IMG/VR virus record: IMGVR_UViG_3300036399_001297
Location: 19,005 to 83,004 of that record
Length of the DNA: 64,000 bases
Strand: one strand, 5' to 3'
DNA from: a virus
This document shows, piece after piece, positions 15,387 to 37,638 of this stretch (position 1 is the first letter of the stretch; each line of letters starts with the position of its first letter). The notes under the pieces are model-generated. The model searched no databases, had not been told where the DNA came from, and was given only the letters and a program-made list of their open reading frames with translations. The translations under genes were made by a program, and so were the position numbers.

Positions 15387-16238
15387 ATGGCTAAAACTAA
15401 AAAAGAAAACCTAGAAAACGAACCCCTCGCTGACATTGACGATGCTTTTAAAATCCTAGATGATTTAAATCCAGACGCAGCATTTCTAAATGAGAATACC
15501 CTTTCCACAGTTAAGGAATGGATAGACACTGGTTGTATGGCTTTAAACGCTATAATTTCGGGTTCGTTGTATGGCGGTATACCTATGGGTAGAATTACAG
15601 GATTTGCTGGACCCCAAGCATGTGGAAAAACTTTAATGGTTAATAAAATAATGGCTCATGCTCAAAAGAAGGGTATGAGAGTAGCTTATTTTGATACTGA
15701 AAATGCTCTTGATCCTGATACAGCATCAAATTTAGGATGCGATCCATCAAAAATTAAACATTGTCCAACAGAGGTAATCGAAGAATGTAGAAATCAAATT
15801 GTAAAATTTTTGAAAAGCATCATCGATAATAATCTACAGGGAAAAGTTTTGTTGGTTATAGATTCTTTGGGAAATCTTATATCCTCTAGAGAAGCAAAAG
15901 TAATCGAAGACGGAAAAGATTCGGCAGATATGGGTGCGAGGGCTGTTGCGTGTTTATGTCCAAATACACTTATACACACCATAGACGGAGTTAAAAAGTT
16001 ATCCGATTTAAAAATAGGAGATTTTGTTTTGACTCATTTAGGTAGATATAAAATGATAACAAATAAGTGGGAAACAAACCATAAAGAATATATTAAAATA
16101 AAAACAAAAAATTCTTATATTTTATTATCAATAAATCATAAACTTTTAGTAAAAAGAAATTCAAAACTATCATATATAGAGGCCCAAAATATTAAACCTA
16201 CTGATAAATTATTAAAGTTTAACGAGCAAAATCATTAA
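15387..16238 (+). CDS. uvsX: UvsX/RecA recombinase N-extein (188 aa) fused to split intein N-fragment (95 aa)
   Basis: IDTGCMALN, Walker A GPQACGKT, FDTE, VIDSLGNL, DMGARA, then intein start CLCPNT. Confidence 0.93.
   Translation: MAKTKKENLENEPLADIDDAFKILDDLNPDAAFLNENTLSTVKEWIDTGCMALNAIISGSLYGGIPMGRITGFAGPQACGKTLMVNKIMAHAQKKGMRVAYFDTENALDPDTASNLGCDPSKIKHCPTEVIEECRNQIVKFLKSIIDNNLQGKVLLVIDSLGNLISSREAKVIEDGKDSADMGARAVACLCPNTLIHTIDGVKKLSDLKIGDFVLTHLGRYKMITNKWETNHKEYIKIKTKNSYILLSINHKLLVKRNSKLSYIEAQNIKPTDKLLKFNEQNH
15951..16235 (+). mobile_element. split intein IntN (UvsX)
   Basis: Block A CLCPNTLIHTIDG, LKIGDFVLT, block B SINHKLLV, IEAQNIKPTD; ends at TAA. Confidence 0.9.
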
Positions 16239-16269
16239 AATGTAGAGCAAAATACATAAGTATGAATAT

Positions 16270-17376
16270 ATGGAAAATATATTCATAAATTATTTTAAAA
16301 AGAATAAAATAAAATTATCAGAAAAATCATGGAATAATTTAACTCTTATAAAAAATATAAGAGTTGAAAAATTTTTATCAATACCTAAAAACGAAACTAG
16401 ATATAAATGGTTTTGTGATTATGACGGAACATCAACAGCTTTAAATTTTGTAAGAAAAAATAGCAAAAAAATAATGATAGAAAAACTTTGTTATATATGT
16501 GAAAGTAGTTTAGGTGAACAAACTTTATCAAAACAATTTTCTTTTATATATTCAAGTAATAACGAAAATCTCAAACCATCATCACATTTAAATAAAATGT
16601 GTTTTAATTGCGCCACAAGAGAAAATTCTAAAAACGGATTAGAGAAAAGAAAAAAAACATGCTTAGATAAATACGGCATAGAATATAAAATTTTAGATTC
16701 TGACGTAATTAAAAATAGAAAAAAAATTTTAACCGATAGATACGGTGAAAACTATAAAGAATTTTTTTGGGAAAAAGCAAAAAACACTTATATAAGAAAA
16801 CTTGGCGTTTCTCATAATACAAAAATTCCAGAAGTTCTGGAAAAAATGGTAAAAAATAGATTAGAAACATTAAAAACCTTATCTCCGGAAAAATGGAAAG
16901 AATGGTCTGATAATAAAATAAAGGCATATAACAAAGAAGGATCTAGTGGATTATTTGGCAGAAATGATTTTGATGGAAATAGTAAGATAGCTAAGGATTT
17001 TATATCTAAACTTATAAATGTATTAAATCTGCAAGAGAACGAATATATTACAGAAAAACCACATTCGAAATATAATATTGATCTTTATATAAAAGATTTG
17101 GTTATAGTAGAATTTTATGGTGATTTTTGGCACGCAAATCCAGAAATATATAAACCAGATGACATTATAGGTGTAAGTTACAACACAATTACCGCGAAAG
17201 AGAAATGGGAAAAAGACGCTTACCGAATAGAAAAATTAAAAAACGAATTAAATCTTCCGGTTATAATTGTATGGGAAAAATCATATAAAGAAAATAAAGA
17301 TAAAATAATACTTGATATAATCAAAAATATTAATATAATAAAAACCAACAAAGAAATTAAAACATATGTTTATTGA
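16270..17376 (+). CDS. free-standing homing endonuclease, EDxHD/Vsr-like, between the intein halves
   Basis: C-terminal IDLYI...VIVEFYGDFWHANP...WEKD...IIVWE; three KxTxxx(K/R)(Y/L)G repeats; CxxC...CxxC; TAAGTA 7 nt upstream. Confidence 0.8.
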   Translation: MENIFINYFKKNKIKLSEKSWNNLTLIKNIRVEKFLSIPKNETRYKWFCDYDGTSTALNFVRKNSKKIMIEKLCYICESSLGEQTLSKQFSFIYSSNNENLKPSSHLNKMCFNCATRENSKNGLEKRKKTCLDKYGIEYKILDSDVIKNRKKILTDRYGENYKEFFWEKAKNTYIRKLGVSHNTKIPEVLEKMVKNRLETLKTLSPEKWKEWSDNKIKAYNKEGSSGLFGRNDFDGNSKIAKDFISKLINVLNLQENEYITEKPHSKYNIDLYIKDLVIVEFYGDFWHANPEIYKPDDIIGVSYNTITAKEKWEKDAYRIEKLKNELNLPVIIVWEKSYKENKDKIILDIIKNINIIKTNKEIKTYVY

Positions 17377-18037
17377 AAATAATTACGAAGAAATTGATAT
17401 ACTAGAAATCACAAAAATAGAAGAAGAAAAAACTTTAATAGACATTTCTGTTGAAGAAGATGAGACATTTTGTATTACTGATGAAAGAATTATAAGTCAT
17501 AATTGTAAGTCTATGCTTAGAGCGATTACACATACAGCAGCAAAGGCTAATTGTCCTGTTGTTTTCACTAATCATATTTACGACAATCCTGGTGCGATGT
17601 ATCCAACCTTGATTAAAAACCAATCGGGTGGTTCTGGTCCTCTGTATATGAGTTCGGTACTGGTTCAGATGTCTACAAAGCAGGAACGAGTCGGAAAATC
17701 TGATAATAAAAATTCAAATGATGATGTCACACCTTTATCCAAAGATGTTAACGGATTAACAATGAGAGCATTGACTACAAAAAATAGATTCGTTCCTCCA
17801 TTTTTGGAATGTGAAATGTATCTAAATTTTAGAACCGGACTTTCTAAATATTCAGGATTATTGGAAATGGCAGAAGGTTACGGTGTAATAGCAAAACAAG
17901 GTCATAGATACGCTCTTGGAGAAGAAGTTTTAGGGTTTTATAAAGATTGGAGAGAAGATGAAATCGTCTGGAATAAGATCTTACCAAAACTTGAAGAGAA
18001 ATTGCAAACCGAATTGAAGTTTAAAAAAGAAGATTAA
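17366..18037 (+). CDS. uvsX: split intein IntC (46 aa, 17366..17503) fused to UvsX/RecA C-extein (177 aa)
   Basis: Block F LIDISVEEDETF, block G IISHN followed by Cys+1; then KSMLRAIT..VVFTNH, SGGSG, TKNRF. Confidence 0.93.
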   Translation: MFIENNYEEIDILEITKIEEEKTLIDISVEEDETFCITDERIISHNCKSMLRAITHTAAKANCPVVFTNHIYDNPGAMYPTLIKNQSGGSGPLYMSSVLVQMSTKQERVGKSDNKNSNDDVTPLSKDVNGLTMRALTTKNRFVPPFLECEMYLNFRTGLSKYSGLLEMAEGYGVIAKQGHRYALGEEVLGFYKDWREDEIVWNKILPKLEEKLQTELKFKKED

Positions 18038-33300: not shown

Positions 33301-34983
33301 TTAAAAAAATACCAGAGGATTATAACCGTCTTCGTTTTTTAATTCTTGTTCCTTTTTATCATTAGATCTCCAAATTATTTCTGGACTATGAGATTTGTAT
33401 TCATATTCGTATCTATTTTTTGTAATATTAGGTTCCCATTTAAGTAATTCCGATTGAAATCCTAATCCTTCTGATATAACAGCCGGATCTTCTTTTATTT
33501 TACCTTCGGGTAAATAGGCTAGGGGAGCATTATAAGATATTTCTTTTTTTGTGGTATTAACCGTACCAAATATAATAGGACTCTTTTTAATAAGATCGGA
33601 ATTATCGATAAAAGGAGTCATAAATAATGGTCTTCCTTGATCATCGGTTTGTTTAACATTAAAATATTTTTGTGCTAATGTTGGTTCTAGGATAAATAAA
33701 GCCCATACTAATGACCAAACTCTATCATCTCTATCACTTTCATTTTTTTTAGAAAATGTGTAATTAGGCAGTTGTACAAATTCTGCTATTTCTATTAAAG
33801 TATCGAGATCAAATATTTTAACAGCTTTTAAACTATCTACCCAATAACGGAAATTTGTCATACTCCGATATCTAGTATTCGTATGATTGTATATACCCAA
33901 TCTATTTTCATTATTGTAGTGCTGAGACATCCCCTCAAATTTATAAGTAACCACTGATTCATAATTGTGGGTTCTGGCAACAACATCTAAAACCTGTTGA
34001 CCGTAATTATTGTTTTCGATTAGTATAGGAGGTCTACCCCAATCATTTGCGATACCGATAAGACGTGTACCGAAATGATACGGTGTTATAGTATTGGATG
34101 CAAATATAGCCACCTGTTCTATATTGGTTAAATCTGAAACATCTAAAACTTGAGCTACTGTATTAGTTCTTCCTATCCCCTCACCAACGTCCACCCCTAT
34201 AATATAATGACTTGTTGGTTTTGGTTGTCTATAAATTTTATAAGAACCTTCGTCTGTTGCTAAAATAGGCTCTTTACATAATTTTTTAAGTTCTTCTAAA
34301 TGTTCGGCTGATATAACAGATTTGCCTAACGTATGAAAAGTATTTTCGTGTTCTTGTTGAAATGTATGTAGTGATCCTAATGAAGCTATTTCACTTTTCT
34401 TCCATTCTTCATTACGGTCATCATTTTCACTCCAATGCACTTTTTCCAGTTTCCATCCACTGTCAGGTTTTTGAGCTTCTAAATATAATTGATAAAATTT
34501 ATTTTCTTTATCGGCTCCGTTAGGTGTAGATATTCCAACAATCTGACTTTTTTTAGAAGACGTTATAGTAGGTATAACAGATTTCCATAATTCCTCCATC
34601 AAATCATTTTGTATATGTGCCATTTCATCAATTATGAGGCATTGATGTGATAATATATTATTAGAAATATATTTATGATTATCTACAACTTCTAAAAATT
34701 CATAAACAGGATCATTATTTTCATATTCCTCTTTTTTTATTAAAGAAATATTATTCCAAAAAATATCACCGATTTTAGAATTTTTAGCATATTTCCATTT
34801 TTTTGATGAAATCATAATTTTATGTTTAGGTGTACAGTTTAAAATTTCACCATTAGAAAAGTATAATTTTAACTTTTTATTATTTTTTCCAACAATTAAT
34901 CCTTTAAAATCTTTAAATCCCTCATCGGTTAAAATTTCAAAATCATTATTTTTATAAATTTTGTAATCAGATAAATCGGCCAT
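33301..34983 (-). CDS. split intein IntC (114 aa, 34983..34642) fused to large terminase C-extein (Walker B + nuclease domain)
   Basis: EILTDEGFKDF, CTPKHKI, VYEFLEV, ILSHQ|CLIIDEMAH, ISTPNG, FQQEH, IGVDVGEG, IENN, DDRV; ATG 1 nt after the endonuclease stop. Confidence 0.92.
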   Translation of the reverse strand: MADLSDYKIYKNNDFEILTDEGFKDFKGLIVGKNNKKLKLYFSNGEILNCTPKHKIMISSKKWKYAKNSKIGDIFWNNISLIKKEEYENNDPVYEFLEVVDNHKYISNNILSHQCLIIDEMAHIQNDLMEELWKSVIPTITSSKKSQIVGISTPNGADKENKFYQLYLEAQKPDSGWKLEKVHWSENDDRNEEWKKSEIASLGSLHTFQQEHENTFHTLGKSVISAEHLEELKKLCKEPILATDEGSYKIYRQPKPTSHYIIGVDVGEGIGRTNTVAQVLDVSDLTNIEQVAIFASNTITPYHFGTRLIGIANDWGRPPILIENNNYGQQVLDVVARTHNYESVVTYKFEGMSQHYNNENRLGIYNHTNTRYRSMTNFRYWVDSLKAVKIFDLDTLIEIAEFVQLPNYTFSKKNESDRDDRVWSLVWALFILEPTLAQKYFNVKQTDDQGRPLFMTPFIDNSDLIKKSPIIFGTVNTTKKEISYNAPLAYLPEGKIKEDPAVISEGLGFQSELLKWEPNITKNRYEYEYKSHSPEIIWRSNDKKEQELKNEDGYNPLVFF

Positions 34984-34984
34984 T

Positions 34985-35851
34985 TTATTTTTTTCTATGT
35001 TTTTTTCCACCACTTTTTATCCATCCAGTTGGAATATCTTGAGAAATAGGATGTCTTTTAATCTTATTTGTAGTCGTATCACATATAAAAATATATTTTT
35101 CTATACATTTTTTACCAGTGCCTTTTACCCATCCATCAGGTATAGTTATATCCGGATTATGTCGTTTACAAACATTAGCGACTGAGTTATATATATAAAT
35201 AGAACCTTTACCTGATATTTTTGATATATTTTCTTTATTATTTTCGCGTGATTTTAAAATACCATCCCTAATATTTTTTTTAGCTTCTTCGGATCTTTTC
35301 ATACCCCTGTGTTTTTCGGCCATTTTTTTAATTTTTTCGGGATTTTTATTGATTTTTATCATACGTTCTTTATGTTTTTCCGGATTTTCTTTTATCCATT
35401 TTTTAATACCAATTCCTTTTCTTTTATTTATTTCTGGATTATCAAAAACTTTTTCTCTCATCATTTTTTTATAGTCTTCAGATTTCCATTTTTTTTTAAA
35501 TCTTGTAGATATCTTTTTTATTGCCTTTGATGACCACGCACAAGGCCCATAGCCACCTTCTTTAATGTTATACGTATCATTTCTTTCTATAAATTCTAAT
35601 GTTACTAATTTTCTTTCGGCGTGAAGTGCTTCTTGATACGTATTATAAAAATTCAATATTGTTTTTTTAAAATTTTCTATTCCATATTTTTTTATGGATC
35701 TTTTTAAATTAAGACCAGACCCCATATAACCATCATCTATATTATCTGTCCTATGAACTCCTATATAAATTTTACCGTTTTTAATATTTTCAATTTCATA
35801 TAAATAATTGTATTTTCTATTTATTTTCGGATCGTTTAAATGTTTCTTCAT
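34985..35851 (-). CDS. free-standing GIY-YIG homing endonuclease (Seg-like) between terminase halves
   Basis: YLYEIENIKNGKIYIGVH..DDGYMGSG, YNIKEGG, NUMOD3-like HRGMKRSEEAKKNI, two IPxGWxK repeats; TATAAGTA 6 nt upstream. Confidence 0.88.
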   Translation of the reverse strand: MKKHLNDPKINRKYNYLYEIENIKNGKIYIGVHRTDNIDDGYMGSGLNLKRSIKKYGIENFKKTILNFYNTYQEALHAERKLVTLEFIERNDTYNIKEGGYGPCAWSSKAIKKISTRFKKKWKSEDYKKMMREKVFDNPEINKRKGIGIKKWIKENPEKHKERMIKINKNPEKIKKMAEKHRGMKRSEEAKKNIRDGILKSRENNKENISKISGKGSIYIYNSVANVCKRHNPDITIPDGWVKGTGKKCIEKYIFICDTTTNKIKRHPISQDIPTGWIKSGGKKHRKK

Positions 35852-35898
35852 TAGAAATACTTATACACGATGATTTATTATAGATGAATTTGCTTATA

Positions 35899-37638
35899 TC
35901 AATCATTTAAAACTATAAAATGAGGCGGTTCTTCTTGATTATTTTTTAACAATTCTTCTAGATCTTTTAAATTGATTTTAAATATTTCTTCTGTTTTTTT
36001 ATCTTTTAATGTTACAATTGTGTCACCAGTAACACAATTTATAGATTGACCTCTAACAGCAGAAGCAGAAGTAGAAGAAACTATAATACTTGACCCATTA
36101 CTAAGATCGAATCCGTTTTTTCTATTAGATTTTACAGCTGGTTTTAAATATACAGGCAATTCTTCAAAAGCCATTTTTATTCTAGAAAAAATTTCCATGG
36201 CAGTATCAGCTTTGTTAGCCAGTATAGCAACTTTTTTATATTCATGAAAGCATACTAACCATAAAGCATACATGGAAACAATTGTGCTATTGTGAGTAGG
36301 TATTAAACCTTTTCCACATAGATATAAAGAATCTGGACTATCTACGGTGATACATCTAACAGGAACACTTTCTACTTCTTTAATATCTTTTATATAAAAA
36401 TATTGATTTCTTTTAGATGTTGACAAATAAGTTTTTACAAATCTAGAACATTTAAAATCCGAACAAGTAACACATTCTCTTGGTTTAAAATATAGAATAC
36501 CACATTTTGTATATTCTTTATCTTTAATTTTAGGTATTTTTTCATTATATTTTACCTTATATCCTAAACTTTCTATCAATTCTTTTACTTGTAAAATTAA
36601 AGGTATATTAGTATTATAAAAAATAGCACTTCCGTTTTTTTCAATATATCCATCAGAATCCATTAAACCTTTTAAAAGCTCCATTCTTTGATGTTTGGAT
36701 GCTTTTAAAAATATATCGGGTATATGTTTATTTTTAAATAAATTGTTAGTTCTTAAATGATAGTATAAAGAATTTTTTTTATCTTCGTTAGTTAATTTTA
36801 CAAGAAAATTGTCTTTTTTATATTCTTTAACGTTTATTATTTTATAAAAATCTAATTCTTTTATCTTTTTTAAAATAGAATCTATATCTCTTATTCCTAT
36901 AGTTATTCTAGAATCATTCGAATGTCCATCTCCTAACCACAAACCTAAAATATATGGATTTATAGGTAAATTCTTGTTATCATTATATAAACCATCTACA
37001 CACGAAATTATACGATGATTTGGTTCTCCGCTTAATGTCGTTAAAGTTTTTAAAATTTCTTCTGTTGTTTTTGAACAACCTTTACTTTTTTTAGTTTTTC
37101 TATCATTTCTAGTTTCAGTAAACCAAAGATGTTCAGCATCAGCGATTATTTTTTCACCGTTATCAAATAATATTTCGTAACATTTTCTATTGTGTAATAT
37201 ATCATGCGCTTTTGTTACGTTGTAGATGTTTCCGTCAGAACCATATATTTTATCTCCGGTTTTTAAATCTCCCATTTTTAAAAATCCATTTGGAGTTGGT
37301 ATAGGAGTTTCAATAGAAAGAGCTTTCCCCATCTGTCTCGAAGCACATACCAATAATCTTCTTTCGTCCTTTAAACTTTTTAATATTCTTTTTTGATATT
37401 TTCTAAGTTTAATTTTTATTTTACCTTCATCTAAATTTACAATATGAAAATGTCTTTCCGCAAAATGTAAAATACTTTTAGCACATGTTCTATTTTCTTC
37501 GAACATCTCTTCGGTAAAGATTATTTTTGCGTTCTTGTTTAGAAGATTTTCATTTCCTTTATAATATCCACCATCGACAAGAATATTATCTTTATCAATT
37601 TCAGGAACATCAGGAATAGGTGCTTTTTTTCTTGGCAT
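35899..37638 (-). CDS. large terminase (gp17-like) N-part with contiguous intein and terminal split-intein IntN
   Basis: LRKYQ, Walker A ASRQMGK|intein|ST, ILANK, AVRGQSIN|CVTGDT. Confidence 0.93.
   Translation of the reverse strand: MPRKKAPIPDVPEIDKDNILVDGGYYKGNENLLNKNAKIIFTEEMFEENRTCAKSILHFAERHFHIVNLDEGKIKIKLRKYQKRILKSLKDERRLLVCASRQMGKALSIETPIPTPNGFLKMGDLKTGDKIYGSDGNIYNVTKAHDILHNRKCYEILFDNGEKIIADAEHLWFTETRNDRKTKKSKGCSKTTEEILKTLTTLSGEPNHRIISCVDGLYNDNKNLPINPYILGLWLGDGHSNDSRITIGIRDIDSILKKIKELDFYKIINVKEYKKDNFLVKLTNEDKKNSLYYHLRTNNLFKNKHIPDIFLKASKHQRMELLKGLMDSDGYIEKNGSAIFYNTNIPLILQVKELIESLGYKVKYNEKIPKIKDKEYTKCGILYFKPRECVTCSDFKCSRFVKTYLSTSKRNQYFYIKDIKEVESVPVRCITVDSPDSLYLCGKGLIPTHNSTIVSMYALWLVCFHEYKKVAILANKADTAMEIFSRIKMAFEELPVYLKPAVKSNRKNGFDLSNGSSIIVSSTSASAVRGQSINCVTGDTIVTLKDKKTEEIFKINLKDLEELLKNNQEEPPHFIVLND
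35902..36036 (-). mobile_element. atypically short split intein IntN (45 aa)
   Basis: CVTGDTIVTLKDKKTEEIFKINLKDLEELL.. contains block A only; block B is on the IntC. Confidence 0.88.
36289..37323 (-). mobile_element. contiguous class 3 intein (345 aa) with LAGLIDADG endonuclease
   Basis: Ala1 (ALSIETPIPTPNG); block B ADAEHLW; block F VRCITV; block G IPTHN|S; LGLWLGDG and LKGLMDSDG motifs. Confidence 0.9.

Follow-up and report, generated by a model that had tools for sequence, protein, structure and literature searches.

A predicted T4-like large terminase gene interrupted at both Walker motifs by a class 3 intein and an atypically split, glutamine-ended intein

Phage DNA packaging depends on the ATPase of the large terminase subunit (TerL), and we describe here a TerL gene that lies in pieces on the minus strand of a 64,000-nucleotide stretch (the window) of the 83-kb IMG/VR virus record IMGVR_UViG_3300036399_001297, a record that is ~39% complete. 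Very probably this is the TerL gene of a T4-like lake-water myovirus that has been invaded by two protein-splicing elements and is mended by splicing to a TerL of 635 residues. One element is a contiguous intein of predicted class 3 in the Walker A motif, and the other a split intein of predicted class 1 type at the start of the Walker B strand; a first-pass annotation made from the DNA letters alone had proposed two mechanistically different inteins at these positions, and our analysis agrees. The evidence consists of the anatomy of the locus, the homology of its parts, natural empty sites, the conservation of key residues and the purifying selection observed across the locus.

The locus comprises three open reading frames (ORFs). 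ORF1 reads ...ASRQMGK / ALSIETP...IPTHN / STIVSMY...AVRGQSIN / CVTGDT...VLND followed by a stop. ORF3, when read from GTG 35013, opens with 124 residues ending in ...NNILSHQ, and CLIIDEMAH begins an extein of 446 residues at residue 125. A script reproduced all of these boundaries, together with the ORFs and coordinates of the first-pass annotation, and the length given there for the mature protein (105+84+446 = 635 residues) is the correct sum. In the list below, IntN and IntC are the N- and C-terminal parts of the split intein and L004 is a relative with an uninterrupted TerL.

35899..37638, minus strand: ORF1, 579 residues, consisting of TerL extein 1, intein 1, extein 2 and IntN, then a stop; matches phrog_36964 (terminase large subunit), E 1.2e-74
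37324..37638, minus strand: TerL extein 1, ORF1 residues 1-105, whose last residues are the predicted Walker A ...ASRQMGK; counterpart of residues 1-106 of the L004 TerL
36289..37323, minus strand: intein 1, 345 residues (ORF1 residues 106-450), 1035 nucleotides, predicted class 3 with a nested LAGLIDADG domain
36037..36288, minus strand: TerL extein 2, ORF1 residues 451-534 (84 residues), STIV...AVRGQSIN
35902..36036, minus strand: IntN, 45 residues (ORF1 residues 535-579), CVTGDT...VLND then a stop; starts with Cys1 and holds block A only
34985..35851, minus strand: ORF2, predicted free-standing GIY-YIG (SegE-like) homing endonuclease of 288 residues
34642..34983, minus strand: IntC, 114 residues from the likely start ATG 34983, with block B (TPKH) and blocks F and G, ending ...SHQ
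33301..34641, minus strand: TerL extein 3, 446 residues and a stop, from the Cys+1 of CLIIDEMAH (predicted Walker B) through the nuclease domain

Within IntN a conserved core of ~30 residues is followed by a variable tail, and the LAGLIDADG motifs of intein 1 lie near ORF1 residues 229-238 and 321-331.

Both predicted excisions are precise and in frame, because natural alleles match the spliced forms. Contig L003, with 93-95% nucleotide identity to the window and the same IntN, GIY-YIG gene and IntC, is without intein 1 and reads ASRQMGK|STIV; blastn of the two places a single insertion of exactly 1035 nucleotides at 37323..36289 of the window. At the other site, the uninterrupted 633-residue TerL of L004 reads RGRSIN|ILIIDECAH. 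The exteins joined in silico (635 residues) align to this protein with 391 identities in 639 columns, the nearest gaps being ~38 residues ahead of junction 1 and >380 residues beyond junction 2. These results bear out the two restorations that had been claimed from the letters: removal of 37323..36289 to restore Walker A, for which L003 provides an allele reading ASRQMGK|ST without exactly those 1035 nucleotides, and joining of GQSIN to CLIIDEMAH to restore Walker B, where the uninterrupted L004 is collinear at the junction. The splice in silico and alignment that had been proposed as a check gave a product collinear with the L004 TerL, which itself aligns to T4 gp17.

Two protein alignments were used for residue conservation and profile matching: A1 holds 23 relatives with a two-intein N-half and A2 holds 27 IntC-bearing relatives. 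The profile of A2 switches from a part resembling CatC, an engineered consensus intein fragment, to a gp17-like part exactly at the predicted junction of IntC and extein 3.

The host gene is a predicted gp17-type TerL, with Walker A, Walker B and the C-terminal nuclease domain collinear with gp17. PHROG profiles identify both ORF1 and ORF3 as terminase large subunit. Residues 36-542 of ORF1 fall on positions 23-526 of phrog_36964 and residues 121-307 of ORF3 on positions 515-707, and extein 3, like ORF3, also matches phrog_2 (E 5.3e-24). The TerL of L004 matches the T4 gp17 structure 3EZK (E 2.7e-46) in an alignment that places SRQSGKST opposite SRQLGKTT and RGRSINILIIDE opposite RGNSFAMIYIDE; we take SRQLGKTT and RGNSFAMIYIDE to be the Walker A and Walker B motifs of gp17. 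Positions 116-426 of the A2 profile match the same structure at E 2.4e-69.

Intein 1 carries all four sequence features of a class 3 intein and is assigned to that class on their strength. Class 3 is defined, in the available text of Tori 2010 (PMC2807308), by a residue 1 that is not a nucleophile, by the Trp-Cys-Thr triplet (Trp at block B position 12, Cys at block F position 4, Thr at block G position 5), by a +1 residue that is Ser or Thr, and by a usual location in the P-loops of ATPases, including phage terminases; the same definition is given in the accessible portions of PMC5050341 and PMC4031507. The corresponding residues of intein 1 are Ala1 (ORF1 Ala106), His65 and Trp67 (H170 and W172), Cys324 (C429), Thr343 (T448) and Asn345, followed by Ser+1. 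The Trp lies two residues past the block B His, the Cys at block F position 4 and the Thr at block G position 5, and all three align with the residues of 6BS8 and 6RIX. Across the relatives in A1, the non-nucleophilic first residue is Ala in 22 of 23, while all 23 retain the His, Trp, block F Cys, Thr and Asn; the C-terminus of intein 1 reads THN|S, and the +1 residue is Ser in five relatives and Thr in 18.

The best matches of intein 1 among solved structures are the mycobacterial DnaB mini-inteins 6RIX, 6RIY and 6BS8 (E 9.5e-26 to 2.5e-24). These alignments run over the full length, from residue 1 to the final HN, with ALSIETPIPTP opposite ALALDTPLPTP at the start and VPVRCITVD...IPTHN opposite VPVRCVEVD...VPTHN at the end. 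The middle of the intein matches Pfam LAGLIDADG_3 (33.2 bits, over the cut-off), Hom_end (25.1 bits) and PI-SceI, and the aspartates of its two LAGLIDADG motifs are kept in 20 and 21 of the 23 relatives. In a pairwise comparison with contig L007, the synonymous divergence (dS) of intein 1 is 0.046, against 0.66 and 0.21 in the flanking exteins, as would be expected if this element had homed recently.

The second element is a predicted class 1-type intein, atypically split in the manner of the TerL inteins AceL-TerL and GOS-TerL (GOS, Global Ocean Sampling). As a single sequence, IntC matches CatC (6DSL_B) at E 1.8e-4, and positions 11-115 of the A2 profile match it at E 1.1e-19. Block B (TPKH) sits in IntC; its Thr51 is conserved in 26 of the 27 sequences of A2, and its His54 and the Cys+1 in all 27. 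The first residue of IntN, Cys1 (ORF1 Cys535), is invariant in A1 (23/23). The split itself reads as a simple break of one HINT domain: the first ~31 residues of IntN and the whole of IntC map side by side on contiguous mini-inteins at the same site in the proteins P0155, P0143 and P0136, with ~13 loop residues between them. A reading of the element as a single contiguous intein, with read-through of the GIY-YIG domain, was considered and rejected, as ORF2 is in another frame and bounded by stops.

An exhaustive search with IntC gave 476 representative clusters at E <= 1e-3, 62 of them at E <= 1e-10. Since the first residue of the closest homologues is the equivalent of Met11 (query 1-114 on protein 1-114), translation of IntC likely starts at ATG 34983, one base past the ORF2 stop codon, and gives a fragment of 114 residues. 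A start at GTG 35013, which would add 10 residues, was rejected because the homologues begin at the Met of ATG 34983.

The terminal residue of IntC is Gln (SHQ|C) and not Asn. Among its best 150 relatives, 25 end in Gln and 110 in Asn, with 15 unscoreable, and every one of the 25 lies at the Walker B site of a TerL with Cys at +1, in 20 cases at the N-terminus of the protein (split) and in five internally (contiguous). A terminal Gln is described as slow in the Pab and Mma Pol II inteins and as efficient in the ribonucleotide reductase (RNR) intein of Chilo iridescent virus (CIV), according to the accessible parts of PMC4031507 and PMC8175363. Relative to L003, the ratio of non-synonymous to synonymous divergence (dN/dS) is 0.011 for IntC (16 synonymous changes and one non-synonymous) and 0.095 for IntN, with values of 0.016 to 0.12 over the exteins; for ORF2 it is 0.14 against both L003 and L007. 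The low values of IntC and of the endonuclease indicate purifying selection and support a function for both.

ORF2 is a predicted free-standing GIY-YIG homing endonuclease, with matches to Pfam GIY-YIG PF01541 (23.3 bits, cut-off 22.6), Pfam SegE_GIY-YIG PF19835 (28.8 bits, cut-off 25) and the homing endonuclease profile phrog_314 (E 2.3e-36). Two endonucleases, one LAGLIDADG and one GIY-YIG, had been named in the first-pass annotation, and the Pfam scores for them (33.2, 23.3 and 28.8 bits) are all over their cut-offs. A TAAGTA box (within window positions 35852-35870, minus strand) ends 6 nucleotides upstream of the ORF2 ATG, where no Shine-Dalgarno sequence is visible; the ATG of IntC is without such a box. 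Because the box occurs at ORF2 only and the IntC ATG follows one base after the ORF2 stop, these signals suggest that the endonuclease gene has a late-type promoter of its own and that ORF3 is translationally coupled.

The pathway that we propose for this locus would begin with three polypeptides: a precursor of 579 residues, the GIY-YIG homing endonuclease, and IntC with extein 3, the last probably translated from ATG 34983. Intein 1 would leave in cis by the class 3 route, in which Cys324 attacks the Lys105-Ala106 bond, the N-extein then moves to Ser+1 and Asn345 cyclises, so as to restore the GK-ST of Walker A. A single HINT fold would arise when IntN (45 residues, block A) docks into the nearly complete IntC (114 residues, blocks B, F and G); a thioester at Cys1 would be transferred to Cys+1, and the terminal Gln would cyclise instead of Asn. 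Ligation in trans would make ...RGQSIN-CLIIDE... and restore Walker B, with the TerL of 635 residues as the end product. We infer this chemistry from the defining residues and from characterised relatives, and the order of the two reactions and the targets of the endonucleases are likewise inferred.

Because each intein breaks one Walker motif, both splicing reactions would be expected to gate packaging. A single essential ATPase would then need splicing by two distinct chemistries, in cis by the class 3 route to rebuild Walker A and in trans by the class 1-type route to rebuild Walker B. One may go further and suppose that, at the Walker B site, the inteins with a terminal Gln are naturally split ones in which glutarimide formation resolves the branched intermediate, and that the slow Gln step and the separate class 3 excision act together as a two-key timer or redox checkpoint which delays the terminase ATPase to late infection, rather than being neutral parasitism; taken as a whole, we consider this proposal doubtful.

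Several points weigh against a TerL mended by two splicing reactions. In Pfam, the Terminase_6N match of ORF1 residues 451-545 reaches 17.7 bits, under the 22-bit cut-off, and the Terminase_6C match of extein 3 reaches 20.2 bits, under the 22.6-bit cut-off. Both splicing reactions are deduced from sequence, and the support for the assembly consists of other assemblies with the same layout. The terminal Gln takes the place of the canonical Asn, and splicing is slow where Gln is terminal in the Pab and Mma Pol II inteins in the available text of PMC4031507. With the record at its present completeness, an intact second TerL may also lie outside it. Within the whole 83-kb record, a query with the L004 TerL found three pieces only, exactly at the three exteins, and on this basis a second TerL in the record, incomplete as it is, was rejected.

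The terminal Gln also bears on an alternative in which only the cis intein splices and the two TerL halves are held together non-covalently, through the intein halves or the extein surfaces, with no ligation. A residue that is slow in some inteins (PMC4031507, available text) would suit such an arrangement, as would the fractured phage genes that work without inteins, of which Aeh1 NrdA is an example cited in the accessible part of Dassa 2009 (PMC2677866). However, Cys1, the block B Thr and His and the Cys+1 are invariant or nearly so, and the IntC is held at the dN/dS given above; the Gln-ended contiguous inteins within the single TerL ORFs of P0155, P0143 and P0136 must excise to give a Walker B motif; and the related AceL-TerL and GOS-TerL are reported as trans-splicing in the consulted portion of a review (PMC11766414). 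We therefore regard the non-covalent arrangement as improbable. A decaying or mis-assembled terminase, that is, a defective phage or a chimeric contig with no functional TerL, is the least credible alternative and highly improbable, for although the window is a metagenome-assembled fragment of an incomplete record and two contigs of one other sample, L007 and L002, terminate within the locus, the same layout recurs on distinct contigs of other samples, namely L003 (93-95% nucleotide identity), L007, and L015-L019 (49-51% protein identity), every frame is open, no catalytic residue is lost and the selection is strongly purifying.

The two-intein, mended TerL is common among metagenomic relatives, the combination recurring in 26 of 120 proteins and 6 of 80 loci. 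The 120 proteins are the best protein relatives of ORF1, and all of them have the P-loop intein. Downstream of it, 74 are otherwise uninterrupted, 33 end in a short IntN-type tail, 11 stop ~100 residues into extein 3 at a third split site, and two have a contiguous Walker B intein and a further IntN. The 33 proteins with a short tail include 26 split at the site used in the window, six split 10-11 residues downstream and one that is truncated. The 80 viral loci were picked by P-loop intein patterns, so that a P-loop intein is present in all by construction. Six of them (L007 and L015-L019) have IntN, a GIY-YIG gene and IntC as in the window; four are split without an endonuclease (L023, L038, L045 and L069); five hold other inserted ORFs, which are DUF7487/Vsr-like, TnsA-like or without a Pfam match (L013, L014, L020, L057 and L066); one has an in-frame insertion (L031); two are interrupted at the third site (L054 and L068); 60 are continuous across Walker B; and in two (L059 and L070) the contig ends too early. 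Two distant TerL relatives with 27-32% identity (L005 and L006) carry no information on the junctions, and L002, which begins within ORF3, is silent on the split.

Systems of this general kind have been described. In the accessible text of Dassa 2009 (PMC2677866), a fractured gp17-like 'Terminase' locus from Global Ocean Sampling has an unusual split with a C-terminal part of 122 residues that holds every motif but the first N-terminal one, and a fractured DnaE-1 locus has an additional in-frame intein. The window fits the definition of a fractured gene given in the same text, in that two same-strand ORFs carry the intein halves and flank a free-standing homing endonuclease ORF. As at the GOS 'Terminase' locus, a gp17-like gene is divided over two ORFs on either side of a free-standing endonuclease. 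The statement of the first-pass annotation that fractured genes with split inteins and free-standing endonucleases, as well as TerL inteins, were already described agrees with the consulted parts of Dassa 2009 and Tori 2010 (PMC2677866, PMC2807308). Cat is a consensus of the atypically split AceL-TerL and GOS-TerL, whose IntN and IntC have 25 and 104 residues and 37 and 115 residues, respectively, in the available portion of PMC11766414. The split intein of the window resembles the GOS 'Terminase' locus, GOS-TerL, AceL-TerL and Cat, as far as these sources describe them, in its split after block A, short IntN and long IntC, Cys+1 and homology to CatC. Its IntC of 114 residues compares with those of 122 (Dassa 2009), 115 (GOS-TerL) and 104 residues (AceL-TerL), and its IntN of 45 residues with those of 25 (AceL-TerL) and 37 residues (GOS-TerL). 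Unlike these atypically split TerL inteins, it ends in Gln in place of the C-terminal Asn. The N-terminal ORF of the window also bears a predicted class 3 intein.

Intein 1 resembles the class 3 DnaB inteins (mycobacteriophage Bethlehem; mycobacterial 6BS8 and 6RIX) and the P-loop TerL inteins of mycobacteriophages in its Ala1, its Trp-Cys-Thr triplet, Ser or Thr at +1, insertion between Lys and Ser/Thr of the P-loop and nested LAGLIDADG domain. In contrast to these inteins, its host is a predicted Terminase_6/gp17-type TerL of a low-GC (guanine plus cytosine) freshwater myovirus, not an actinobacteriophage TerL1, and the gene is shared with a split intein. An essential protein that needs both cis- and trans-splicing reportedly has a precedent in the split dnaE of Trichodesmium erythraeum, which is said to carry multiple inteins (Liu and Yang, 2003). 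The window differs from that system in that the host is a phage TerL and not a cellular DnaE; the split site of dnaE is reportedly canonical, and its inteins are not known to include one of class 3.

Other Gln-ended inteins are those of Pyrococcus Pol II and of the CIV RNR, whose final Gln is presumed to take over the cyclisation step of Asn, in the accessible parts of PMC4031507 and PMC8175363. Those inteins are treated there as single-chain cis inteins, whereas the Gln of the window ends a naturally split one; of 135 relatives that could be scored, 25 share it, every one at this TerL site. In a literature search with thin coverage of subscription journals, no published account of one TerL holding both a class 3 cis intein and an atypically split intein came to light, nor any of a natural split intein ending in Gln. 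Each component is of a known kind and the locus is not a new kind of system; the combination and the Gln-ended split intein are worth a note. Almost every intermediate is found among the close relatives, from the empty site and the contiguous mini-intein to splits that lack an endonuclease and splits that contain a GIY-YIG, Vsr-like or TnsA-like one, and this near-complete series therefore makes the clade suitable for study of gene fracture by endonuclease invasion. Gln-ended atypically split inteins could also give orthogonal protein-labelling tools with a short IntN.

Further interruptions occur among the relatives. The third intein site lies ~100 residues into the C-extein, where 11 of the 120 ORF1 relatives stop with a short IntN-like tail (P0036, P0038, P0046, P0053, P0054, P0066, P0068, P0069, P0080, P0081 and P0086); L054 has a contiguous intein there, with a C-terminal part like the IntC of the window, and L068 is split there. 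In L057 (6546-10505) a P-loop intein, IntN, a DUF7487 ORF, an IntC-like segment, a TnsA-like endonuclease ORF, a second IntC-like segment and the C-extein follow one another, and its TerL may have three or more interruptions. L013 and L014 (6589-9435) contain a single frame of 948 residues that starts just past the N-half, with ~417 residues without a Pfam match and then IntC and the C-extein; a domain of a kind not recognised by Pfam may be fused in frame to IntC there. The distant tblastn TerL match of L006 (6001-6909, plus strand) coincides with no plus-strand ORF of at least 100 residues under table 11, for which another genetic code or a broken gene could be the cause. The C-extein match is broken within one gene by a frame switch in L035 (6555-7585) and by an in-frame stop in L017 (3729-4784); these TerL loci are otherwise similar, and the breaks are frameshifts, stop codons or errors of assembly.

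Divergence from L003 is mosaic, with a dS of 0.065 in the C-extein (window 33304-34641) and of 0.29-0.48 in IntC, the GIY-YIG gene and extein 1, which suggests recombination breakpoints near the mobile elements.

The phage is probably a T4-like, low-GC lake-water (freshwater) myovirus, and genes neighbouring the locus match tail tube and baseplate profiles. Twenty sequencing runs from 17 studies are listed for the stretch, with no RNA datasets among them. In five runs half or more of the sampled words are present, and one of these runs may be the source sample. Each of the five carries the label lake water metagenome, which serves as a hint of habitat only.

A second fractured gene is found in the same phage at window positions 15387-18037 on the plus strand. 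The N-half of a UvsX/RecA protein (PF00154, E 3.8e-15) ends in an IntN of ~95 residues (...ARAVA|CLCPNT...), and the locus continues with a DUF7487 ORF of 368 residues, an IntC ending in ISHN|C and the RecA C-half. DUF7487 co-occurs with a weak Vsr match in L066.

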